Source of the DNA: a candidate division WOR-3 bacterium
Lineage (GTDB): Bacteria > Hydrothermota > Tepidihabitantia > Tepidihabitantales > Tepidihabitantaceae
Direction: 5' to 3'
NCBI GenBank assembly: GCA_039801245.1
Contig: JBDRUF010000003.1
Location: 1-62,607 of the forward strand
Length of the DNA: 62,607 bases
The translations under genes and the position numbers were made by a program. The stretch's first letter is position 1, and every line of letters begins with the position of its first letter. Below the pieces are notes generated by a model, which did not search any database, had not been told where the DNA came from, and saw only the letters and a list, made by a program, of their open reading frames with translations. Positions 1-60,699 of the stretch are shown piece after piece.

Positions 1-1777
1 GAAACCAGTTTTCACCACCATCGGTTGTCTTGTAAACCCTGCCGCGGCTGCCAACTGTGAGATAAAGGGTTGAGGGGCTGTCAGGGTCAATTGCCATTAT
101 TTGGGGACGGGACTGGACAAAGGAGTCGCTCCCCGGAGTTATTCCCAGACCGTTGTTTTTCCAGAGCCAGGTGCTGCCGCCATCGGTGGTCTTGTAAACT
201 CCGTATCTGTTCAGCCAGATGTAGATAACGCTTGGGTTGGTCGGGTCAATGATAATCGGTCCAATCGTATGTCTGGGCAGTTCATTGGTTAAAATGCCCC
301 AGGTTTCACCGCCATCGGTGGAGCGAAACAGAAGCCCGGAGTCAACAACCCAGGGACCGGCACCGGCATAGATGATATTTGTGGAATCGGGGTGGATGGC
401 AAGGTAAAAACAGGTGTTGCCATAGCGCTGCAGTTCGTCGTGAATCCATTTAAAGGACTGTCCCCGGTCGGTGCTCTTCCAGGTGCCGCCATCACCAAGC
501 CCGACATAAATCAGATTGGAGTCAACCGGGTCAACAAGGATATGCCTGATACAGGTCACCTCAAGACCCCGGCCTTTCCAGTTGTCATCCGGACCGATGG
601 ATTCGGTATAGCACTGGTGCCAGTTAAGACCGGCATTGGTGGTTTTGACAACCGCCTCGGCTGAACAGTAAAAGAGCATCGCGGTATCTGCCGGGTTTAG
701 GGTCAGGGCATAGGGCTGGGGCGTGCCATAGAAGCGGACCCAGCCTGGTAGAACATTGAGGGTGGTGGTAATCCTTGCCCAGGTCTGTCCGCGGTTAATA
801 GACTTGTAAACCCCGCCGGAGCCAAAGTGAATCGCACCGGTGTAAATAACCGCAGGGTTTTTAGGGTTGATGACAATGTCAATGTATTTTGACGGTCTTA
901 AACCGGTGGTGCAGGCAAACCAGAGTTCACCGCCATTTGTGGTTTTAAAAACGCCGCCCCGCCAAGAGGGGATGGTGTCGGAGATGATGGTGAGATAGAG
1001 TTCATCTGGGTCTTGGGGGTTGATGGCGATATTCCTCGGGGTGATGGTGTCGGAGAATGGTGGCAGACCGTTGTTTTTCAATGTCCAGGTCTCACCGCTG
1101 TCGGTGCTTTTGTAGACGCCGTTATGGGCAACCGCATACAGGATGTGGGCACTGTCAGGGTGAACTATAAGGGCGGAGATGAGCGCGGTGGTGTCAATCC
1201 CGGTGTTGCGAATCATCCGCCAGTTTTCACCGCCGTCGGTGCTTTTAAAGATTGCGCCCTTGGTAGGAACCGGTGCCCAGCGGCTAACATCATTATGACC
1301 GAGCCTGGGCATACCGATGCCGGCATAGACGGTTAATGGGTTTTGCGGGTCAACCGCTATTGCGCCAACCGGGGCGGTGTAGTTGTAAACCCCGGGCGGT
1401 GGAAACCCATTTCTTTTTGGCACCCAGGTCTCACCGCCATCAGTGCTCTTGTGCACACCACCCCAGGTGCCAAGGAAGAGCGTGCCAGGCTCCTGGGGAT
1501 GGGGCACAACCCTTTCCACATAATAGTCGGTAAGACCGCTGTTAACGATGCGCCAGGAGAGACCATAATCGGTGGTTTTATAAACACCACCAACATCCGA
1601 GCCCACAAACACCGTTCCTGGATTGAGTGTGTCAAACGCCACAGTTGTAAACCAGCCACAACCACCTGGACCAACTGAATGCCAGCTGATGTCAGCCTGA
1701 GCAAAGGATGGGCTAAAGTTGAGAGAGAGGGAAAATAGGAGCAGATTGAGCCACCGCTTAGCCACTTTTCTCACCAT
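1..1777 (-). CDS. Secreted BNR/Asp-box repeat beta-propeller protein (sortilin/VPS10- or GH74-like); the C-terminal part lies beyond position 1
   Basis: By hand translation the frame is open from ATG at 1777 (MVRKVAKRWLNLLLFSLSLNFSPSFAQA, signal-peptide-like) down to position 1. There are about ten S/T-x-D-x-G-x-T-W Asp-box units (KSTDGGETW, KSTDGGENW, KSTDSGETW, KTTNGGELW, RSTDGGETW, KTTDGGSTW, KTTDGGENW and others). It is missing from the ORF track only because no stop codon lies in the window. Confidence 0.8.
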   Translation of the reverse strand, partial: MVRKVAKRWLNLLLFSLSLNFSPSFAQADISWHSVGPGGCGWFTTVAFDTLNPGTVFVGSDVGGVYKTTDYGLSWRIVNSGLTDYYVERVVPHPQEPGTLFLGTWGGVHKSTDGGETWVPKRNGFPPPGVYNYTAPVGAIAVDPQNPLTVYAGIGMPRLGHNDVSRWAPVPTKGAIFKSTDGGENWRMIRNTGIDTTALISALIVHPDSAHILYAVAHNGVYKSTDSGETWTLKNNGLPPFSDTITPRNIAINPQDPDELYLTIISDTIPSWRGGVFKTTNGGELWFACTTGLRPSKYIDIVINPKNPAVIYTGAIHFGSGGVYKSINRGQTWARITTTLNVLPGWVRFYGTPQPYALTLNPADTAMLFYCSAEAVVKTTNAGLNWHQCYTESIGPDDNWKGRGLEVTCIRHILVDPVDSNLIYVGLGDGGTWKSTDRGQSFKWIHDELQRYGNTCFYLAIHPDSTNIIYAGAGPWVVDSGLLFRSTDGGETWGILTNELPRHTIGPIIIDPTNPSVIYIWLNRYGVYKTTDGGSTWLWKNNGLGITPGSDSFVQSRPQIMAIDPDSPSTLYLTVGSRGRVYKTTDGGENWF

Positions 1778-2138
1778 CGGTTCATATTATCATAACCGAA
1801 ACAAAAGGGAAGACAAAGAGATGCCAGGTTAACTAAAAGGAGGGCAACGGGTTAGACCCTGATGAGGGCTAATATATAGAGAGTCGGGGATAGTGTAATC
1901 AGGGCAGGGGTGGAAAGGGTTTTGGGCGTGGTTTCAGAGAAAATCTGGGAGATTGATATCGGTGCGGTTTTGGGCGGGGAAAAGGGAAGGGCAAGGGGTA
2001 TAACAGGATAAATGGTGTTCAGGGCAGAGCCTGAAGCCCAACCTGAGACAGCACCCAAAAGGGCATCAGGGAGAAAAGCGGAGATGGTAGGGGGGACTGT
2101 CCCCGGGATGACCCCTGGGCTGGTCACTGACCGGGATT

Positions 2139-2168
2139 TTGGCACTTTCTCTATAATTTGCGTATAAA
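2139..2168 (+). promoter_or_regulatory. Sigma-70-type promoter TTGGCA-N18-TATAAA for the small-protein gene at 2195
   Basis: TTGGCA at 2139-2144, an 18-nt spacer ending in TGCG, and TATAAA at 2163-2168. The SD aaaggagggg follows. Confidence 0.5.
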
Positions 2169-2194
2169 TATGTGAGAAGAGAAAGGAGGGGAAA

Positions 2195-2569
2195 ATGGCA
2201 GAGCAAAATAATAGGATTAACCTGAACCGGCAGTTTGCGGGTGTTCTTAGAGAACTTGCCGCCAGTCCGGAAAATAACCCTTTTGCCGTTGTTGAACAAA
2301 AGGAGGCGGAGATTTGCTCCTGGCAGGAGATTGAGCCGCTCTTAAGGGGTATGGGTCTGAGTCTGGTGCGTCAGAACCAGTGCCGCTGGTTTCTGAGAGA
2401 GGTTATCAGGCTTTTGTGCAGCCAGTCACCCTATCTTGCCCAGCATATCAAGTTCTGCATCGGCAAATGGCAGGGGTTTGGACTGAATAGGGAGCTTTTG
2501 CAACTATTAGTGTGCGAGGTTTATGAATGGGCAAAGAGGCAAAAGAGGGATGATGCCAGGGCGGCTTGA
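2195..2569 (+). CDS. Small helical protein, paralog family member A (unknown function)
   Basis: 124-aa ORF with a strong SD. The C-terminal KWQGFGLNRELLQLL matches the KW-x-x-x-GL-x(3,4)-L motif of the ORFs at 2523, 11945 and 52712. Confidence 0.6.
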   Translation: MAEQNNRINLNRQFAGVLRELAASPENNPFAVVEQKEAEICSWQEIEPLLRGMGLSLVRQNQCRWFLREVIRLLCSQSPYLAQHIKFCIGKWQGFGLNRELLQLLVCEVYEWAKRQKRDDARAA

Positions 2570-2945
2570 TAGCGGTTTCAGGCTCAGGGCAAAAGGGGTT
2601 GCAGATGTTGCGGCAGAAAGGTATTTACGCCGGCTGGTAAATGGTGAATGCAGCCGGCGCTGGGATGAGGACATCAAGGGACAGGTTGAGGCATATCAAC
2701 AGATGCGCAACTATCTGGAGAACCTTTGGTTAGAGGTAAGGCGCATCCTTGAACAGCGAAGGGTTCCGGTTTATCAGTTTCTGTACTATCGCAACTTTGC
2801 CCAGCACATTGACCGGCTCTGGCGTCACTATTCAGGGAGGCAACTTGTGCTGCAGGTGCAACTGGCAATAGAAAAATGGCAGGGCTACGGGCTGAGAAGG
2901 GAAATCCTGAGAGAGATAATAGGTGTAATCAGTATTCCCGCTTAA
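2523..2945 (+). CDS. Small helical protein, paralog family member B (unknown function); start uncertain (ATG 2523, 2550 or 2553)
   Basis: VRRILEQRRVPVYQFLYYRNFAQHI...SGRQLVLQVQLAIEKWQGYGLRREILREI aligns by eye with the cores of the 11945 and 52712 proteins. Its stop TAA (2943-2945) overlaps the convergent methyltransferase stop in a shared TTAA. Confidence 0.6.
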   Translation: MNGQRGKRGMMPGRLDSGFRLRAKGVADVAAERYLRRLVNGECSRRWDEDIKGQVEAYQQMRNYLENLWLEVRRILEQRRVPVYQFLYYRNFAQHIDRLWRHYSGRQLVLQVQLAIEKWQGYGLRREILREIIGVISIPA

Positions 2946-5900
2946 ACACTTTTGGCTTTGGTGAGGCGGGCGTGAACCAATTCGGCAACTGCCCAGTAGA
3001 CCTCTTTCCGCTCCTCTTCGGTTAATCCGAGGGCATCAAAGACAACCTCATCAAGTGCTTTGCGGTCTGGTAATGGCTTTGGCTCCTGCTCCCTGATGGG
3101 CTTATTAGGGTCAAAACCGAGTTCGGTGAAGATGGGGTGGATTTCTTTAAAAATGAAGTTAGCAAAAATTTTTTTATTAAATTTAATATTTTCTATTGGA
3201 GGTATTGGCATTTCGTTATAATGACATACTTTCATTTGTATTGGTCCGCCTCCACCACCTTCGGGTGGACGACATAGAAGTTCTTTCCATAATCCTATAA
3301 GGCTGCTATTTAAAAACATATTCAACGATTCATCTTCTATATCGCACTTTTTATATACCCAATATAAGGCAGCATCTATGAAAGCATTTGCTTGATTATA
3401 AAAACAATATTTTCTTTCTCTTTCAAACATTGGCAGGATATTTTTGCTAATTTCCCATTCACCTAACTCCCACCATCTTGGTCTTCCTTTACAAGTGGGT
3501 CTTTTGTCAAATCCTTCCCTTTCTCCCCATTTTATATATTCCCAAGCCTTTGCTCCTTTTAATTCCTTTTCCGATTTATGGCACATAAAGACAAGGTAGT
3601 TTAAGTCTTCAAGTTTTACAATTATTGTCTTTAATTCCCTCGGGCTTTTTATCACCGGCTTTAAAAACTCTGCCTCAATTTCACCTTCCCAGCCCGCACC
3701 ATTTTGGACAGGAATCAGGCGAGAAGGCTCCTTCTCTGAAATCTCAGCAACCTGTTTAACGGTCATACCAACAGGTTTTAGATAGAAGAACTCATTGGCA
3801 CCGGTTTTAATACCAAACCTCACCTCAGCAATATCTCCCAATCTTACCAGTTTCCCTTTCCCTTTTTCAAGAATCTTGAAATAAATATCTGGCGCCCTTA
3901 GGTATTTTCCGCCCCATTTGTCGCCGATGTAGCGGGCAGATTTGATTAATGGGGCAGAAGAGCCGCGTTTGGTTTCGTCAGGTTCAGGTAGTTCAATGCC
4001 GTTTTCCCAAAGGGTGCGCTGGCGGATGGGGGTGACCCGATATTCTTTGGTAATGGCTCTTTCTTTTGCTTCCTCAATCTCCTCAAATATGACCGGGGAG
4101 AGGACCTGCTCAAATGGCACCTTGAACATCACGAACCGGGCGATTTTGTCCAGTCCGGCATCGCGGCGCTCTTCAGGGGCGGCGAGGAGGACGATGACGG
4201 TGTTGACATCTGCCCGGGCAAAGGTGCGTTTGGTCTCGTTGTCAATAATCATCTTGACATTGCTCTGTCTGAGGAGAAACTCCTGGAGGTCTTTGCCGTA
4301 GCCGACATCAAGCCAGGAGTTGGAGGTGATGAAGCAGAATGAGCCCTTTGGGTTCAGGAGGGACAGACCGTGGAAGTAGAAGTAGATGTAGAGGTCGCTT
4401 TTGGCATCGGGCTGCCGTCCCTTGAAGAAGTCGGGCCAGGCAGAAATGACCGAGAGGCGCAGTTTCTCCTTATGCATCTTTTTCAGTTCGCGCCAGTCGT
4501 CTTTGGAATACTCATCCTCGGGCAGCAGCGGCGGGGCAATCATCTCCTGACGGACATAGGGCGGGTTGCCGATGACGATGTCAAACCCTTCCTTTTCGCC
4601 CTCAAACACCTCCACAAAGGCGATGTCCCAGACAAACGGGATGTCCTTAACCGTCCTGATGGTATTGAGTGCCTGTTCAACCCGCTCAAGTTCTGCCTCC
4701 TTTTTTTCTTTTTCCGCCTGCCATTGGGCAATAAGGAGGTTTAACTCCTTTGGCTTGCCGGTATCGGCAAGGGTTAATTGGTCGTATAGTGACTCAATCT
4801 TACAGGTAAGGGTTTTGATTTCCTCGGAGAGGGCGTGGCGTTTGTGGAAAAGCGCATCCTGAAACAGTTGTTTTTCCTCCTCTTTGAGAAGTTCCTCGCT
4901 CAAGCCTTTTGTCTCCCCATAGAAATAGCGTAGTTTCTTGCCCTTCAACTGGGTGATTTTGCCTTTAAGATAAGGGGGCAGGTCCAGATGGGTGCGGTGG
5001 AGGTTGAAGTTGATGCCGCCTATCTCCTGGAGCAGGCTGTCACCTTGGCGCAATTTGAAGTTGAGATTGGGCAAAAGTGGGACCAGGGCTCTTTCAGCAG
5101 GTTTGAGTTCGGTCTCAACAACCAGTTGCAGCCAGAGGCGCAGTTCGGCAATATGGACCGCCCATTCCATTACATCAACGCCGTAGAGGCTTGAGCCGAT
5201 GATTTTGCGCCGGCGCTGGTAAGGGGTTTCCTCTATACCCAACTGGTAATTGGCACGGGCAATCAGGTCGTCTAAGACAAGAAGCATTCCTACCAGAAAT
5301 GAGCCGGAGCCGCAGGCAGGGTCGCACACGGTAACCGAGCGCAAAAGGTCGTTGAGTTTGTGCCAGAGGTTGAGGCGGGCGATTTCGTTGTCGGCTGACT
5401 CCTTGTCCGGCTGGTCATAGGCAAAGACTGCCCGATATAGGAGCGGTTTGTGGTTTTCGCCCAGATGATTGGCGAGCCAGTCAACAAGAGCCAGTCGGCA
5501 CATCAGGTCTATCTCCACCCTCGGGGTGTAAAAGATACCGGCTTTGCCGCGCTGGTCCTCCTTGGTAATGCCCTCAGAGGTGATGTTCACCAGTTGCTCA
5601 TAGACAATGCCAATCATCTCCGGGTCAACCGCAACCTCAACATCAAGGGGCGATGACTCGGTGATGGTGAAGTTGTGTCGCTCCAGGAAGCCGGGTTGAG
5701 TGCCTTGAAAGGAGTCAAAGAGAAGGGCAAAGAAACTGTCCGGGACAATTGGGTCGTATTTTTCGTCAAGTTTGTTGCGGGAGAAGAGACCGCCGTTGAG
5801 ATAGGGCGCGGTTGCCAGGGCGGTGCGAATTTCTTCAGGCAGGTGTTTGCGGTCCTGTCTGCCCGCCTGGAAACTCTGATTGAAGGCTTCAAAGAAGAGG

Positions 5901-6736
5901 ATGGAGAGCCAGTCAGAGAAGAAGGTGTCTTTGGGCTGGTTGGAGTTCTGGTAGGCTTGCCAGAAGGTGCGGATAAAGTTCGGGTTATTACCAAGCCACC
6001 GTTTCTTCTGGATGAAGTAAAGGAACATCAGCCGGTTCAGTAACTGGAGTGCGTAGTCGTGCGCCCAAACCTTGTCCTCCGTTTGTTCCATTAGGAGTTT
6101 TTGCAGGGTCTCAAACACATCTTGATAGCCGTCAAAGAACTCCTCGGTTACCGCCTCAACGCTGAAGGCATCCTCAATCCGCTGGAGTGTCGGGTCGGTT
6201 GCGTCATCCTCAAGGATGGGCAAAAGTCGGGACTGGGCGGTGTGACTGCCTTCATCTTTGCCAACCAGATAGGAGAAGCGCTTGGTGGGTGTGAGCTCGG
6301 GTTTAGCAGCAACCCTGCCGCTGGGTGTTGTGTCCAAGCGGTAGGCAAGTTTGACAAGGGAGAAACGCCAGGTGTCGGACTCGGGTGGGACAAATGCTAC
6401 CAGCGCCGCATCGGCAGGGTAGCCACCAATCCGCTGGTTGAGGTAGTAACCGATGAGGTTGCGCTGCATTGCGCGGGCGTGATAAAGTGAGGTTTCTTTT
6501 TGAAGTTGGACAACGAGCACATCAAGGCGGCTGTTAAACGGCTCCTGATAGAAACCGATGCGTTCAAGCGTTTTGACATAGGGCTGAAATGAGGCGGGAA
6601 GTTGGCTGGGGGGGATGGTCAGGGTTGACTCCTCCAGCCGATTAAGGAGATTTTTGATGAATTCCCGGAAAAGGGCAGGGTTAAACGGGTTTTCAAAAGT
6701 CTCGCTTATAAGGCGGACCGCCTGGTCGTGGGTCAT
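2942..6736 (-). CDS. Large gamma-class N6-adenine DNA methyltransferase, Eco57I / PglX-like (no BREX partner genes present)
   Basis: 1264 aa. SAM motif I is VCDPACGSGSFLV and catalytic motif IV is FDIVIGNPPYVRQE. There is a coiled-coil insert between the motifs and a large C-terminal region typical of type IIG/PglX-like enzymes. Confidence 0.85.
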   Translation of the reverse strand: MTHDQAVRLISETFENPFNPALFREFIKNLLNRLEESTLTIPPSQLPASFQPYVKTLERIGFYQEPFNSRLDVLVVQLQKETSLYHARAMQRNLIGYYLNQRIGGYPADAALVAFVPPESDTWRFSLVKLAYRLDTTPSGRVAAKPELTPTKRFSYLVGKDEGSHTAQSRLLPILEDDATDPTLQRIEDAFSVEAVTEEFFDGYQDVFETLQKLLMEQTEDKVWAHDYALQLLNRLMFLYFIQKKRWLGNNPNFIRTFWQAYQNSNQPKDTFFSDWLSILFFEAFNQSFQAGRQDRKHLPEEIRTALATAPYLNGGLFSRNKLDEKYDPIVPDSFFALLFDSFQGTQPGFLERHNFTITESSPLDVEVAVDPEMIGIVYEQLVNITSEGITKEDQRGKAGIFYTPRVEIDLMCRLALVDWLANHLGENHKPLLYRAVFAYDQPDKESADNEIARLNLWHKLNDLLRSVTVCDPACGSGSFLVGMLLVLDDLIARANYQLGIEETPYQRRRKIIGSSLYGVDVMEWAVHIAELRLWLQLVVETELKPAERALVPLLPNLNFKLRQGDSLLQEIGGINFNLHRTHLDLPPYLKGKITQLKGKKLRYFYGETKGLSEELLKEEEKQLFQDALFHKRHALSEEIKTLTCKIESLYDQLTLADTGKPKELNLLIAQWQAEKEKKEAELERVEQALNTIRTVKDIPFVWDIAFVEVFEGEKEGFDIVIGNPPYVRQEMIAPPLLPEDEYSKDDWRELKKMHKEKLRLSVISAWPDFFKGRQPDAKSDLYIYFYFHGLSLLNPKGSFCFITSNSWLDVGYGKDLQEFLLRQSNVKMIIDNETKRTFARADVNTVIVLLAAPEERRDAGLDKIARFVMFKVPFEQVLSPVIFEEIEEAKERAITKEYRVTPIRQRTLWENGIELPEPDETKRGSSAPLIKSARYIGDKWGGKYLRAPDIYFKILEKGKGKLVRLGDIAEVRFGIKTGANEFFYLKPVGMTVKQVAEISEKEPSRLIPVQNGAGWEGEIEAEFLKPVIKSPRELKTIIVKLEDLNYLVFMCHKSEKELKGAKAWEYIKWGEREGFDKRPTCKGRPRWWELGEWEISKNILPMFERERKYCFYNQANAFIDAALYWVYKKCDIEDESLNMFLNSSLIGLWKELLCRPPEGGGGGPIQMKVCHYNEMPIPPIENIKFNKKIFANFIFKEIHPIFTELGFDPNKPIREQEPKPLPDRKALDEVVFDALGLTEEERKEVYWAVAELVHARLTKAKSV

Positions 6737-52711: not shown

Positions 52712-53083
52712 ATGGCAGATTTAGATAAAATGGTGAAGAGATGGCTGAAAAAGTTTACGCCGGCAAGGGCAAAACAAACCCTTGAGGCGGTGTATGATGA
52801 GATGGCGAAGAATTATGCCCGGGCGATGGTGGATTTGCTGGCAATGGAAGACCAGACAAGGCAGGTTCTGAACCAATCCGGGATTCAGAGCGCGCTCTAT
52901 GTCCCCTATCTTGATTTTGCCCGGCAACTTTTTGCATTAAAAAGAAAGGGGATTAGCGGCAGGAGTTTTCAAATGGCGGCAGATGTGCTTCTGGCAAAAT
53001 GGTCAGCACGCGGTCTTAACCCCATTGTTTTGGAGAAAATCAGGCAGGAGGTGTTTGATAGCCAAAAGCAAAAAGACCTTTGA
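52712..53083 (+). CDS. Small helical protein, paralog family member D (unknown function)
   Basis: 123 aa with SD AGGAG. See the alignment with 11945. Confidence 0.7.
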   Translation: MADLDKMVKRWLKKFTPARAKQTLEAVYDEMAKNYARAMVDLLAMEDQTRQVLNQSGIQSALYVPYLDFARQLFALKRKGISGRSFQMAADVLLAKWSARGLNPIVLEKIRQEVFDSQKQKDL

Positions 53084-53937: not shown

Positions 53938-55200
53938 TCAAGCCGATTTGTAGTAGCGGGCTGCCCTGCCTTTGCCTTTAAGGGTGAGTTTGCCCTTTTT
54001 GACCAGCCCGGCAAGGATGTAGCCTGCCTGATGGGGTGAGACGCGCAAAAGGGTGCGGACAATCTCGTTGGTGATGAACCGCTCCTCATCAGGACCGGTC
54101 AGCTCCTCAAGGTAGTTGATAATCGTGCTTTCCGCATAGGCAGATTCGGCACGGCGGAAGGGGTAATAGCTCACCGATTTGCGCAACTGGGCATAGACCC
54201 TTTTAGAGAGCCGGTAAACCCTGCCCTTTTTCTCGCCAAACTGCTCCAAGAGCCCGCGGTTGACCATTGAACTTAAGACCTCGTGCGCCTCCTTCTCGCT
54301 TCTGCCCAAAATGGTCTTGGCTTCGGTAACATCAACCTCGCGGTTACGCTTGAGCCAGTTGAGAATCAAGAGGTCGGGCAGTTTCAGTTCCCGGCCCTCC
54401 TGCTGGCAGCGGACAACAAAGCGGGCAAAGTTTTCATCAAGTTTGCCTTCGGCACGACCGGAACGGATTGTTACCCGGACATAATCTGCACCGGCTTCAT
54501 AGGTTGGTGGCTCCTTGCCATAGGAGAGAAGAATCTGAAACATCCTTTTGACACCCATTCCCGCCCTTTCCACGAGCCGGATGCGTTCAAGGACCTCAGC
54601 AAGAAAGGGGTTGCGGCTGATGGGCTCATGACCGACGATGTTTTCCGGGGTGACATCAGAGATAAAGCCACCCGGGGATGAGACCTCAAGCCTTTCCGGA
54701 AAAAGGCGGAGATAAACCGGGCTCTGGATTGAGTAGTCGCGATGGGTAAAGGCGTTGAGGAGCGCCTCGCGGTAAACCTCGGGCGGAAAGTCAAAAATCT
54801 CAAAGTGAAAAAGCCCGAACTTGAGGGTGAAGATGCGGTTGTGCGGTTCAACCGAGGCACTGAACTCATCCAGCATCGCCAGGAGCGGTTTAAAGGAGTC
54901 AAGCCGGCGGTCGTATTCAACATCATTTTTCATATGCAGAAAGATGGCGCTGTGACCGGGAATCATTTTGCGCAGAAACTCCTCCTTGCCCAGAAGCAGA
55001 AGGCCAGCAGCCTTTATTTTGCCTTCAGGAGAAATAAGACCAAGGCGGGTGAGGAGTTCCTCAGCACTTAAACCGGAATCGGGCTCTTTGGCGCTCTTGA
55101 TGCGGCGCAGCCTTTCTATCTCCAAAGGGTCAATCGCCTCAATCCCGCAGTCAAGGACCTGGGAGGAGAAGTCTGATTGTAGGGCGACACTCATCGGCAT
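53938..55200 (-). CDS. Putative transcriptional regulator with HATPase_c_4 (RecG-C-like) domain and C-terminal wHTH; lacks the usual N-terminal AlbA_2/Schlafen domain
   Basis: The EALLNAFTHRDYS motif followed by ISRNPFLAEVL..L..VERAGMG. Confidence 0.6.
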   Translation of the reverse strand: MPMSVALQSDFSSQVLDCGIEAIDPLEIERLRRIKSAKEPDSGLSAEELLTRLGLISPEGKIKAAGLLLLGKEEFLRKMIPGHSAIFLHMKNDVEYDRRLDSFKPLLAMLDEFSASVEPHNRIFTLKFGLFHFEIFDFPPEVYREALLNAFTHRDYSIQSPVYLRLFPERLEVSSPGGFISDVTPENIVGHEPISRNPFLAEVLERIRLVERAGMGVKRMFQILLSYGKEPPTYEAGADYVRVTIRSGRAEGKLDENFARFVVRCQQEGRELKLPDLLILNWLKRNREVDVTEAKTILGRSEKEAHEVLSSMVNRGLLEQFGEKKGRVYRLSKRVYAQLRKSVSYYPFRRAESAYAESTIINYLEELTGPDEERFITNEIVRTLLRVSPHQAGYILAGLVKKGKLTLKGKGRAARYYKSA

Positions 55201-56212: not shown

Positions 56213-57046
56213 ATGAGGAAAATGATAGTGATGGTTTTAATCAGCCTGCTCTTTTTGTCAGCGGGCGCACAGATCAACAATCCGCGCCACCGCTATGAGT
56301 TGCGGGGCGTGATTGAGACCGGCGCAATCGGCGTTGAGGTGCATCACATCAAGTTCGGCAGGGAGGGGACCAGTTTTGATTATGTCAAAAACGGCAGCCA
56401 GAACATCCTCTTTCCATTTGAGCGCTATTCATTGGAGTTGCACCTTATGCCGCGGCACACATTTATCGGGCTTTATCAGCCGCTTGATTTGCGCACCGCC
56501 GCAACCCTGACCGATACCCTTGTCCTTGACACCGACACATTCCTGCCGGGAACACCGATGAATCTGCGCTACGGGTTTGACTTCTACCGGGTGTCCTGGC
56601 TTTATGACCTCTGGGCGCTCGCAGAAAGGGAACTGGCTATCGGTCTTTCTCTGCAGTTGCGCAACGCCAGCATTGTCTTTGCCACGGCTGATGGCGAAAG
56701 GCAGCGGGTGTATCAGAATTTGGGACCGGTGCCGATTGTCAAGGCAAGGCTGAAACTGCCGCTAAACAACTGGCTCTGGTTTGGCTCGGAGATTGATGGC
56801 TTTTATGCGCAGGGTGCGGGTGTCACCGGTTCAACCAATGTGGAAAACTCCTTCAAGGGTGCGATCCTTGATGGCTCGGTCAGGCTGGGTGCGCGGGTGA
56901 ACAACTTTCTTGATGGGTTTGTCAACCTGCGTTATATCGGTGGTGGTGCCGAAGGAACCCAGAAAAAGCCGCAAAATCCGGGTGACGGCTACACCTCAAA
57001 CTGGCTCAGCACTTTGTCCTTTTCACTGGGCATTATGATGCACTGA
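56213..57046 (+). CDS. Hypothetical secreted/outer-membrane beta-rich protein
   Basis: Signal peptide MRKMIVMVLISLLFLSAGAQ and SD AGGAGG; 277 aa. Confidence 0.6.
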   Translation: MRKMIVMVLISLLFLSAGAQINNPRHRYELRGVIETGAIGVEVHHIKFGREGTSFDYVKNGSQNILFPFERYSLELHLMPRHTFIGLYQPLDLRTAATLTDTLVLDTDTFLPGTPMNLRYGFDFYRVSWLYDLWALAERELAIGLSLQLRNASIVFATADGERQRVYQNLGPVPIVKARLKLPLNNWLWFGSEIDGFYAQGAGVTGSTNVENSFKGAILDGSVRLGARVNNFLDGFVNLRYIGGGAEGTQKKPQNPGDGYTSNWLSTLSFSLGIMMH

Positions 57047-57065
57047 GAAGCGACTTCTGGTTGGA

Positions 57066-57686
57066 CTAAAGTCCTAATAACTTATTAAGCGGATTAACAA
57101 TTAACTCTTCAATGGTTTTGTTCAGCGCCTGTTCCAGTCCGATGTTTTCTTCTTTTGCTCTCTCTTCAAGTTTCTGCCGGCTGAACGCATAGAGCGGAAC
57201 GACAAAGCCTTTGAAATCACCACCTGTTAAATCGCCGGTGTCTGTATACCGACCAGAAAAGGTGGTATTATCATTTACAACAAAATTATCAATAAAGCGT
57301 TTATTATTTATTACTACATAGTAAGCATAATGATGTTTTGCTGGTCTCGGGGTGCGGAGATGGCTCGCAATCACTATCACAGCAGGTTCTGTTATTATAT
57401 TCTTTAGGGTATCGTTGTAGAACTCTGTAGCCCTATCTGGACACAATATACACACTAAACCTACTATCCACTCTGGTTTTTCTTTAAGTTTAAAAGCACA
57501 ATAATATGGGTCGGGGAGTAAGGGCGGACCTACAGACTTGCTCTGGTAGTAAAGATCCGATACTTTCACCTTATAACGGTTACTTATTACAGTTAATAAG
57601 CCGTGGATGTCCTTGAACAATTGGTCGAACCATCTATAGGTTTTATAAAAATTGTTTACTTTGTGCTCATCCATTCCGCTAATCAT
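57066..57686 (-). CDS. Hypothetical 206-aa protein, translationally coupled partner of the nuclease-like gene
   Basis: ATG 57686 overlaps the upstream stop by 8 nt (ATGATTAG). AAGGCGG lies 5 nt upstream. Low GC. No motif recognised. Confidence 0.6.
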   Translation of the reverse strand: MISGMDEHKVNNFYKTYRWFDQLFKDIHGLLTVISNRYKVKVSDLYYQSKSVGPPLLPDPYYCAFKLKEKPEWIVGLVCILCPDRATEFYNDTLKNIITEPAVIVIASHLRTPRPAKHHYAYYVVINNKRFIDNFVVNDNTTFSGRYTDTGDLTGGDFKGFVVPLYAFSRQKLEERAKEENIGLEQALNKTIEELIVNPLNKLLGL

Positions 57687-58431
57687 TTTTGCCGCCTTTA
57701 TCTATTCCCAACCTGAAATCAGGCGGGTTTGGTATGTTTTTGAAATCAATCCCGGCAAATGCGGGCACATAAATCTGCCAGTCTGGGCATTCAGTTATTT
57801 GTTCAAAATCAAACCCCTTGAAAATACGGTAACCGTAAAAGCCAAGAAAGTCCCGGAAATTTTCAAGGACATACCGCTCCTGCTCATTAGTGTTGTATAT
57901 CCGTTCCTTGGGAAAATCGCTGACGAACTTTTCTATTACCCAGAGAACCTCACCCCAGGTTAAATCCAGCCTTTTTTCCTTTAGCTCGTTATCATTAAAC
58001 CCGAAGTAATTCTTCGCGTGTTTAATTATCTGTTCTTCAATCACCGGATTCCCGCCCCTTTTGCACTCAATCAGAAAGCAATAATCTTGCTCTTTATATA
58101 TCCAGGCATCGGGCGAAGAACCGCCTTCAGCGTTTATATCTTTTGTTTCCTTTTTCTCTTCTTCTGGTGGATTGGTTGCGATAGTAACAAGATATTTGTT
58201 GCGGCAGTTTTTAGGGATATTTGTTTCAATATTGCCCTGGAGAGCGAATCCGGCATTTGGATAGTCATATTCAGGGAGTTTGCCAAAAAGCTCCTTGAGG
58301 AAATTTTGGCGGTTTTCCCCTGAAAGTATACGCAGGGTCTGGATAAAGGCACGGGTGAGGTTGTTTTCTTTAAGTTCGGCATCTTCGCTCAGGTTGTAGG
58401 AGTAGAAAAGATTGAGATGCCGGTCCTGCAT
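57679..58431 (-). CDS. PD-(D/E)xK nuclease-fold protein (restriction-endonuclease-like), unknown family
   Basis: ELKENNLTRAFIQTL helix, then SSPDAWIY ... DYCFLIECKRG (a PD...ExK arrangement). ATG 58431 (MQDRHL) is preferred; the track start TTG 58452 sits inside a TATAAT box. Confidence 0.6.
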   Translation of the reverse strand: MQDRHLNLFYSYNLSEDAELKENNLTRAFIQTLRILSGENRQNFLKELFGKLPEYDYPNAGFALQGNIETNIPKNCRNKYLVTIATNPPEEEKKETKDINAEGGSSPDAWIYKEQDYCFLIECKRGGNPVIEEQIIKHAKNYFGFNDNELKEKRLDLTWGEVLWVIEKFVSDFPKERIYNTNEQERYVLENFRDFLGFYGYRIFKGFDFEQITECPDWQIYVPAFAGIDFKNIPNPPDFRLGIDKGGKND

Positions 58432-58602
58432 TGACACAATATTATAATACAAATTTTAAAAGTCAAGGAGAGCAAAAAGCACCGGTTAATACTTGACAAT
58501 TGGCTTGCTATAGATATTATACTTCTGAGTTCAGGAGTTATGTGATGTTTTTCTGCCACTTTTTATTTCAGCAGTTGGGTCCGGGTTTGGAAAGGAGTTA
58601 AG

Positions 58603-59976: not shown

Positions 59977-60123
59977 GAAATAGATTGCCCTTATAATAAA
60001 ACCTACATTCCTCTTTTTTCTTAATAGAACGATTGCTCTTAATTAATTAAGATAAGAAAAGAAACGTTAAAGACCTATAAACTCAATACCTCTACTCCCC
60101 ATGACCTCCCCGTTTTAGTTGAG

Positions 60124-60157
60124 AAGGTTGCCAGCCCGGGTTCGGGCTGGCAACCTT
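60124..60157 (-). terminator. Perfect 15-bp hairpin ending the mini-ORF unit (no clear U-tract)
   Basis: AAGGTTGCCAGCCCG-ggtt-CGGGCTGGCAACCTT. Confidence 0.45.
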
Positions 60158-60175
60158 AAACCTATCCTTTCAAAA

Positions 60176-60235
60176 TTATGCTGTTGGGGGTGCAGGAATA
60201 GGTGGTGGATAGATTGGTGCAAACGGTCCGTCCAT
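60176..60235 (-). CDS. 19-codon proline-rich mini-ORF MDGPFAPIYPPPIPAPPTA
   Basis: Hand translation. AGGAGG (60246-60241) lies 5 nt before ATG 60235 and the stop is TAA at 60178-60176. It is downstream of a consensus sigma-54 promoter. Confidence 0.5.
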   Translation of the reverse strand: MDGPFAPIYPPPIPAPPTA

Positions 60236-60306
60236 TTTTACCTCCTTTTGTGTTTGATTTATGCCTAATATTTAAAATCTGCATTTTCATTGCTTAACAA
60301 ACATAA

Positions 60307-60321
60307 GCAATTTTTGTGCCA
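60307..60321 (-). promoter_or_regulatory. Sigma-54 (-24/-12) promoter
   Basis: On the minus strand, TGGCACaaaaaTTGC is an exact match to TGGCAC-N5-TTGC. It is adjacent to a sigma-54 enhancer-binding protein gene. Confidence 0.7.
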
Positions 60322-60699
60322 CATTATACTAAAATCATAAGTACATTTTTTTCATATAGTTATATATAAGAGACCTTTCTGAACGACACAGAAATAATGT
60401 TAAAATTTGTCGCTATTAGTGCGACTATTTTGTAAGTACAATTTAAATTGAGAGTTATATCATATGCGACAATTATGTGCTTTATTTTTGAGATTAGGGA
60501 TAATAGGTGTTGTTTTTTATTTGTATTTGAAAAATAATAACTTAATTCAATTTTACATCTCCTAATGAAGTAACAAAATATGTGGATTTGTCGCATGTTG
60601 GTGTGACATAGTAATAGATTGTTAGTTAGGAAAGTTTTTTGTTTGAGGATGGTGGTGGGGTTAGCAGAGATGGTGGGCTCCATAATGTTATGGAGGGGT

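Follow-up and report, generated by a model that had tools for sequence, protein, structure and literature searches.

The 62,607-nucleotide stretch analysed here (the window) is positions 1 to 62,607 of contig JBDRUF010000003.1, assembly GCA_039801245.1, from a candidate division WOR-3 bacterium that occurs in hot-spring metagenomes. On its minus strand lie two tightly coupled genes, which we call A and B. Gene A (57679-58431) encodes a predicted PD-(D/E)xK nuclease of 250 amino acids (aa) from an unannotated family, and gene B (57066-57686) encodes a 206-aa obligate partner in which no family or fold was recognised. We favour, with moderate confidence, the view that A-B is a nuclease module of two proteins, accessory and horizontally transferred, whose most likely role is defence against phages or other mobile elements. 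A model's earlier reading of the letters without database searches (the sequence-only reading) had proposed a compositionally foreign nuclease cassette at this place, and much of what follows bears on that proposal.

A and B are an obligate pair. Among 84 distinct A-domain sequences collected from genomes and metagenomes, 52 were intact short A genes with an adjacent, co-directional B and 2 were A-B fusions; not one intact short A with sequence downstream was missing its partner (0), so B was adjacent or fused in all 54 of the 54 informative loci. The rest comprised 11 in which the contig ended before the B position, 4 decayed A fragments and 15 long single proteins (416-529 aa) with B missing. 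Where the two genes are adjacent, the B domain mostly begins between -10 and +40 nucleotides (nt) from the end of A. A search of representatives brought the number of fusions to four, and because these share just 25-32% identity with one another they are not assembly artefacts. The sequence-only reading had called for a survey of whether homologues of the pair co-occur, and in these 54 loci they do.

A is very probably an active nuclease of an undescribed PD-(D/E)xK family, judging by residue conservation and a predicted fold. Word-indexed searching returned 17 relatives; an exhaustive profile search recovered a family of 705 representatives at E<=1e-3, of which 301 reached E<=1e-10 and 95 reached E<=1e-30. 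In a set of 86 divergent members, N7, F9, E22, T26, D108, E122, Q134 and W159 are invariant, and conservation is 90% or higher at D3, H5, Y12, N24, R27, A28, P107, W110, L120 and K124. The window's protein carries the conserved motifs as ELKE(22)NNLTRAF, SSPD(108)AWIY and FLIE(122)CK(124)RG; the PD...ExK signature on which the sequence-only reading based its nuclease call is therefore both present and conserved family-wide. On the minus strand, the putative catalytic core spans 58030-58368, with E22 at 58366-58368, P107-D108 at 58108-58113, E122-x-K124 at 58060-58068 and Q134 at 58030-58032.

An AlphaFold model of A is most confident (predicted local distance difference test, pLDDT, about 90) in this core. 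It arranges, in order, helices 24-35 and 38-49, strands 61-64, 78-85, 109-113 and 117-123, helix 132-143 and strand 154-158. E22 falls just ahead of the first helix and D108 just ahead of strand 109-113, E122 is on strand 117-123 with K124 just past it, and Q134 is on the following helix. This residue placement, together with the alpha-beta-beta-beta-alpha-beta order, corresponds to the canonical PD-(D/E)xK layout, so that the catalytic motif of the superfamily is present in A both in its conservation and in its predicted positions. In a fold search of BFVD, the top match was a phage protein named 'PD-(D/E)XK nuclease superfamily protein' (probability 0.89, E 1.1e-2, template-modelling (TM) score 0.37-0.44), all other matches having a probability of <=0.14. 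The restriction-endonuclease-like fold suggested by the sequence-only reading thus gains support from predicted topology, invariant residues and this match. One homologue, P0009, bears the UniRef name 'Restriction endonuclease'.

By sequence, A returned nothing significant in Pfam, NCBIfam, PADLOC or the sequences of the Protein Data Bank (PDB), the PDB being searched also with profiles A1, A3, A6 and A8, and no curated PD-(D/E)xK clan family gave a significant profile match. All sub-threshold matches nonetheless fall in the PD-(D/E)xK superfamily: the BpuSI nuclease domain (E 0.15 by profile, aligned at D...ExK), VRR_NUC (0.018), PDDEXK_4 (2.2e-4, from a long relative), Shedu SduA and PDC-M15A. 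With members of that superfamily (the BpuSI N-terminal domain, PDB 3S1S; VRR-NUC, PF08774; PDDEXK_4, PF14281; Shedu SduA, DUF4263), A shares the E...PD...ExK...Q order and the predicted core, but it differs in having its own N-terminal DxHLNLFYSY signature and a C-terminal repeat tail. The nuclease fold leaves both of these features unexplained, and we know of neither in any described family. The signature, DRHLNLFYSY in the window (residues 3-12, 58396-58425 on the minus strand, modelled with pLDDT<50), is near-invariant family-wide, including in long single-protein relatives. In a further homologue, P0011, residues 1-125 form an N-terminal extension that matches DUF3969 (PF13108, E 1.3e-10).

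The tail of the window's A, a region of low pLDDT, contains two copies of a 14-aa motif (57709-57813, minus strand): FDFEQITECPDWQI at residues 207-220 and IDFKNIPNPPDFRL at residues 228-241. Its pattern is hydrophobic-x-hydrophobic-x-x-hydrophobic-x(2-5)-P-x-[FWY]-x-hydrophobic, and homologues such as P0003, P0004, P0006 and P0010 carry 1-4 tandem copies spaced about 21-28 residues apart. The motif occurs 98 times in 100 tails and 0 times in heads, compared with 2.7+-1.7 times in shuffled tails. Three of the four A-B fusions have lost it, which fits, without proving, a role for the motif as a tether for B.

Protein B proved harder to trace. A search with the single sequence found only one relative, and a profile search recovered more; genes at the B position are homologous across loci, with 45% identity in L002 and 24-27% (E ~1e-11) in L005 and L006. 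Conserved positions are exclusively hydrophobic, proline or glycine (W19, F20, P54, P101, G145, F158 and F168), which argues against an enzyme, and B is probably non-catalytic by this criterion. Its predicted structure consists of a long N-terminal helix, a six-stranded sheet and C-terminal helices. There was no Pfam or NCBIfam match, in keeping with the earlier remark that the second protein has no recognisable motif. Candidate folds that surfaced were rejected: START, Bet v 1 and Rpb8 had a probability of <=0.13 and a TM score of ~0.15, and a GNAT hit from a PDB sequence search (0.3) is missing the acetyl-CoA motif.

In a sister group, P0125-P0175 (loci L025, L028, L029, L031, L094 and L100), A is the N-terminal part of a single protein of 416-530 aa whose remaining ~230 aa form an unannotated domain, with no Pfam match and at least two sequence clusters. 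That this domain is a divergent B was rejected (hhalign probability 0.4%); the long relatives thus have a different C-terminal domain in B's place, as though the partner were an exchangeable module. In 7 of the 41 loci with room for it, a third gene, C, is found no more than 4 kb downstream. It encodes a ~165-aa protein matching RNase_H_2 (PF13482, E 4e-35) with intact D-x-E, D and Y-x3-D motifs, as in a DEDD-type 3'-5' exonuclease. The window has no gene C. A literature search returned nothing relevant on PF13482 in a defence context.

Several loci add variations of their own. In the WOR-3 JZ-4 genome (L010, contig 23, positions 179-6643), a second nuclease and RNase_H_2 pair (PLDc_2, 396 aa; RNase_H_2, 163 aa) lies ~2.8 kb downstream of the A-B-C operon, with an AAA_14/DUF4143 gene and two Endonuc_Holl genes in between, so different nucleases seem to take on the RNase_H_2 exonuclease as an add-on module. 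Orphan N-terminal or truncated copies of A without B (L014 positions 226-309, L096, L105, L108 and L080) look like decayed remnants of the module; in L014, an intact A-B follows 1.1 kb downstream of the fragment. On metagenome contig L051, two A genes stand in tandem.

At the level of the gene pair, the open-reading-frame listing agrees with the sequence-only reading in coordinates and sequence: A and B overlap by 8 nt, ATGATTAG, the minus-strand sequence from 57686 to 57679, which contains both the ATG of B and the TAG of A. Each gene has an alternative start. For A this is an upstream TTG at 58452, and the ATG at 58431 is favoured because all A homologues start M-x-D-[RK]-H-L-N. For B it is the fifth codon, ATG 57674, the usual start among B homologues, which would replace the overlap with a 4-nt gap behind the A stop; the two genes are tightly coupled whichever start applies. 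A promoter-like TTGACT-16 nt-TAATAT (58439-58466, minus strand; 9/12 consensus match) ends 7 nt before the ATG of A, and a similar TTGACA-16-TATATA lies directly ahead of A in locus L001. This spacing suggests that A-B may be expressed as a leaderless or near-leaderless transcript, if the consensus match does act as a promoter.

Composition sets the pair apart. G+C content (GC) is 0.43 in A and 0.39 in B against 0.505 for the whole window, and GC at third codon positions is 0.48 and 0.39, compared with 0.51-0.65 in the other genes measured and 0.54-0.65 in the nearest neighbours. With a GC of 0.405, the module ranks in the bottom 0.65% of 1.4-kb windows across the stretch. The foreign composition claimed by the sequence-only reading holds, and its hand counts were exact (19/60 for 57241-57300, 25/60 for 58021-58080 and 34/60 for 56581-56640). 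The low-GC inserted segment extends approximately from 57047 to 58602, that is, from the stop of a 277-aa gene to the start of a 457-aa gene, an extent taken from the GC profile and by analogy with the corresponding segment of L001.

That comparison also demonstrates that the pair is accessory. In L001, where A is 74% identical to the window's, the gene order is Usp-219-A-B-277-477-PMT2. In L033, the neighbouring genes are 82-84% identical to those of L001, and just 51 bp stand where L001 has 1,588 bp containing A, B and their promoter, which makes L033 an exact empty site. In more distant WOR-3 genomes with the 277-aa gene, the pair is nowhere within 7 kb of that gene. The sequence-only reading had named beforehand one finding that would count against it, namely that the pair belonged to the conserved core synteny of relatives; the empty site and the distant genomes show otherwise. 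Its suggestion of a horizontally acquired island is borne out further by module GC, which was below that of the flanks in all 9 loci compared. Where the chromosomal site is shared, the flanks are 68-70% identical, but A is only 49-74% and B 27-45% identical, and divergence beyond that of the flanks implies either cassette replacement or fast divergence.

The distribution is wide. Short forms occur in WOR-3, Anaerolineae, Thermoflexales, Caldilineaceae and others, and long forms in Desulfobulbales, Acidiphilium, Nitrolancea and Mucilaginibacter; one WOR-3 genome has two divergent A-B copies on different contigs (L016 and L024). No phage- or plasmid-borne copies were found in INPHARED phages, PLSDB plasmids or IMG/VR. 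A variant hot-spring contig (run X4, 32.8 kb) is ~92% identical over the 277-aa gene, B and A, with similarity ending at 58425, ~6 nt inside the start codon of A, which indicates that its upstream neighbour differs and that the edge of the module marks a recombination boundary.

What argues for defence in particular is the company the pair keeps elsewhere. We scanned 133 neighbour proteins from 18 loci, cut at 7-8 kb, with PADLOC; matches were to DrmMI, DrmA, DrmB and DrmD (two members each), a type IIG restriction-modification (R-M) system and PD-T4-6. In L018, PDB searches identified DrmA (1,135 bits to 7S9V_A) and DrmB (E 2e-181) downstream of A-B, within a co-directional array drmMI-TPR-A-B-146-146-drmA-drmB with gaps of -4 to 92 nt, and in L059 A-B directly precedes the same two genes. 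In L021, A-B is preceded by a DrmMI/type IIG-like gene and followed by a Ski2/HamB-like helicase; L084 has an McrB-type GTPase (E 1.5e-59) and an McrC-sized gene just upstream; L006 has a Dam-type methyltransferase and a SacI-like restriction endonuclease upstream and MNT/HepT downstream. AAA_14/DUF4143, two Endonuc_Holl genes, a PLD gene and RNase_H_2 lie near A-B in L010, and HNH and RmuC do so in L009. Defence genes thus neighbour the pair in roughly a third of annotated contexts, a qualitative tally with no background control. The sequence-only reading had looked to siting near defence genes in other genomes as support, and homologues do lie in DISARM arrays or beside McrBC, R-M and HEPN/MNT genes.

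Several observations weigh against a defence role. The window and several other loci have housekeeping or envelope neighbours rather than defence genes. PADLOC, a check that the sequence-only reading had itself proposed, matched no model to any of the window's proteins, and none to B or any of its homologues. Both structural models are moderate (overall pLDDT 70 for A and 69 for B); Foldseek against the PDB gave no match at E<=1e-3 for A and nothing credible for B. Finally, a single metatranscriptome from the same study had zero coverage.

We also compared A-B with catalogued systems. Judged by sequence similarity, the nearest catalogued entity to A is PDC-M15A, a ~230-aa protein of a multi-gene defence candidate (PDC-M15, PADLOC-DB v2.0.0) in the same size class. 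Four of 18 close A members match it weakly (E 1.2e-4 to 0.037), and the matches, which cover three parts of A in different members, are collinear: residues 22-68 to profile positions 31-73, 152-202 to 153-203 and 160-212 to 156-204. The window's A, however, has no match at E<=1, and the partner matches nothing in PADLOC, so A-B does not qualify as PDC-M15, its similarity to PDC-M15A being sub-threshold. A literature search found nothing relevant on PDC-M15. With Hachiman (HamA/HamB) and McrBC, the pair has in common an accessory nuclease with an obligate partner, defence-island siting, the lack of a methyltransferase and a fast-evolving partner; it differs in that B is small (~190 aa), with no NTPase or helicase motifs or recognisable fold, and no sequence relationship to HamA or McrC was detected. 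A-B is also not a type II R-M system, as no methyltransferase is found among annotated neighbours in the window or most loci, and the one in L006 is paired with its own SacI-like restriction endonuclease. The catalytic fold is of a known kind, but neither protein family, nor the pairing of the two, has an entry in Pfam, NCBIfam or PADLOC-DB v2, and a literature search turned up nothing relevant.

How might such a module work? A would be the effector, a metal-dependent PD-(D/E)xK DNA endonuclease, and B a non-enzymatic obligate partner that binds A and, acting as a sensor or specificity subunit, restrains or directs it. Binding may take place by way of the short repeated motifs in A's disordered tail. 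A single short transcript, possibly leaderless, could yield both proteins, and coupling of their translation would fix the A:B stoichiometry. As there is no methyltransferase, self-DNA would presumably be spared because A stays inactive or off-target until B senses an infection cue or foreign DNA, and the exonuclease encoded by gene C, where present, would presumably extend degradation. The evidence fits a sensor or regulator and a DNA-specificity subunit alike. We put forward tentatively, as something short of probable, the more ambitious proposal that A-B, with C as an option, is an autonomous and uncatalogued anti-phage system in which a new-fold partner is tethered via variable-copy tail motifs and swapped in the long relatives, making a modular nuclease-plus-sensor platform found in at least WOR-3, Chloroflexota, Desulfobulbales and Bacteroidota.

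A particular form of the defence reading is that A-B is a two-subunit, modification-dependent restriction enzyme akin to Type IV, in which B would read modified phage DNA and deliver A. No methyltransferase would be needed, because only modified foreign DNA would be cut, and most loci indeed have none linked. The fusions place the nuclease at the N terminus and B at the C terminus, as in many Type IV enzymes with PvuRts1I/MspJI-type architectures; McrBC-like genes adjoin the pair in L084 and L085; and B diverges fast. On the other hand, B is unlike SRA, EVE, YTH, ASCH or other reader folds, with no detectable similarity to any solved fold, although a novel reader might escape such searches. 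Apart from hydrophobic core positions, B also conserves no polar or aromatic residues that could form a pocket, and embedding in DISARM is not specific support. We regard this form as fairly unlikely.

The tight coupling, putative promoter, accessory status, low GC and wide transfer of the pair are also what would be expected of a Type II-like toxin-antitoxin (TA) addiction module, with A as nuclease toxin and B as protein antitoxin, selfish and with or without a role in abortive infection. If A alone were toxic, intact A should never occur without B, and it does not; other TA genes adjoin the pair in one case (MNT/HepT in L006). At 175-215 aa, however, B is large, its gene follows that of the presumed toxin, and no DNA-binding or antitoxin domain can be recognised in it (no match to helix-turn-helix, ribbon-helix-helix or AbrB); neither A nor B matches any TA family. 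The four divergent covalent fusions, and the replacement of B in the long relatives, fit a functional partner better than a labile antidote. A charge test for an acidic antitoxin and a basic toxin did not discriminate, the median isoelectric point being ~5.5 in both families. We consider an addiction module unlikely.

It is also conceivable that A-B is accessory nuclease cargo that depends on larger helicase/methylase systems such as DISARM, whose nuclease it would supply or replace. In L018 and L059, the pair is co-directional and tightly packed, with gaps of -25 to 46 nt to its immediate neighbours, and it lies inside or directly before drmA-drmB of Class 1 DISARM (DrmD/DrmMI/DrmA/DrmB/DrmC). 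Within the stretches analysed, only DrmMI, DrmA, DrmB and DrmD were recognised and no DrmC-type PLD gene was seen, although, given where the loci were cut, drmC may sit just outside. But A-B is no core gene of DISARM: Drm genes flank it only in L018, L059 and possibly L021, and neither DISARM nor another large system lies near the pair in most loci, among them the window, L001, L012 and L114-L116. These stand-alone loci speak against dependence, and independent systems are often nested in DISARM or BREX; we therefore find the cargo explanation quite improbable. More improbable still is a housekeeping nuclease of DNA repair or recombination with an accessory subunit, a role that many PD-(D/E)xK enzymes have and that would suit the loci among housekeeping genes, but which is disfavoured by the empty site in a close relative and the patchy distribution, along with atypical GC, divergence above that of the flanks, paralogous copies, decayed fragments and embedding in defence operons.

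In the window, the neighbours of the pair are the 277-aa protein, which has a signal peptide and no Pfam match and whose convergent gene is 19 nt from the B stop, the 457-aa PKD/fn3 lipoprotein-like protein, an RfbC-like epimerase and a sigma-54 activator. The sequence-only reading had the pair wedged between envelope genes, which is plausible given the signal peptide and the lipoprotein-like and RfbC-like products but can be verified only in part. It was right that no methyltransferase, TA domain or mobility gene accompanies the pair: there is none, nor any integrase or transposase, within ~5 kb. The window contains no tRNA gene, no noteworthy direct or inverted repeats flank the pair, and no Rfam family matches around the locus.

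Elsewhere in the window, a very AT-rich region of ~720 bp (59977-60699, GC down to 0.27) between the PKD/fn3 and sigma-54 activator genes is the sole part with a GC below that of the A-B module; it has a perfect 15-nt hairpin at 60124-60157, no convincing open reading frame and no Rfam match. The 420-aa product of 53938-55200 on the minus strand combines a HATPase_c_4 domain (E 5e-20) with a weak match to a MarR-type winged helix; putative DNA-binding, ATPase-like regulators of this kind are common in variable regions. On the plus strand, a 123-aa open reading frame at 52712-53083 is a borderline match to Sulf_coat_C, a domain from the C terminus of a Sulfolobus virus coat protein: its 24.4 bits (E 3.5e-5) come just short of the 25.2-bit cutoff.

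The concept behind A-B is not unprecedented, as nuclease-plus-partner defence modules are a well-populated class, and the pair is best seen as a credible, well-delimited candidate in a field with many such candidates. The presence of A-B in DISARM arrays offers a concrete case of the 'systems within systems' pattern that is used for defence-gene discovery. If confirmed, it would be a compact defence system of two genes (~1.4 kb) from lineages that have been little studied, are mostly uncultured and are in part thermophilic. The nuclease family, with ~700 sequence clusters, is unannotated today, and its partner has no known fold. Strict pairing, natural fusions and domain-swapped long relatives provide a framework for asking how small nuclease effectors stay silent and then fire.

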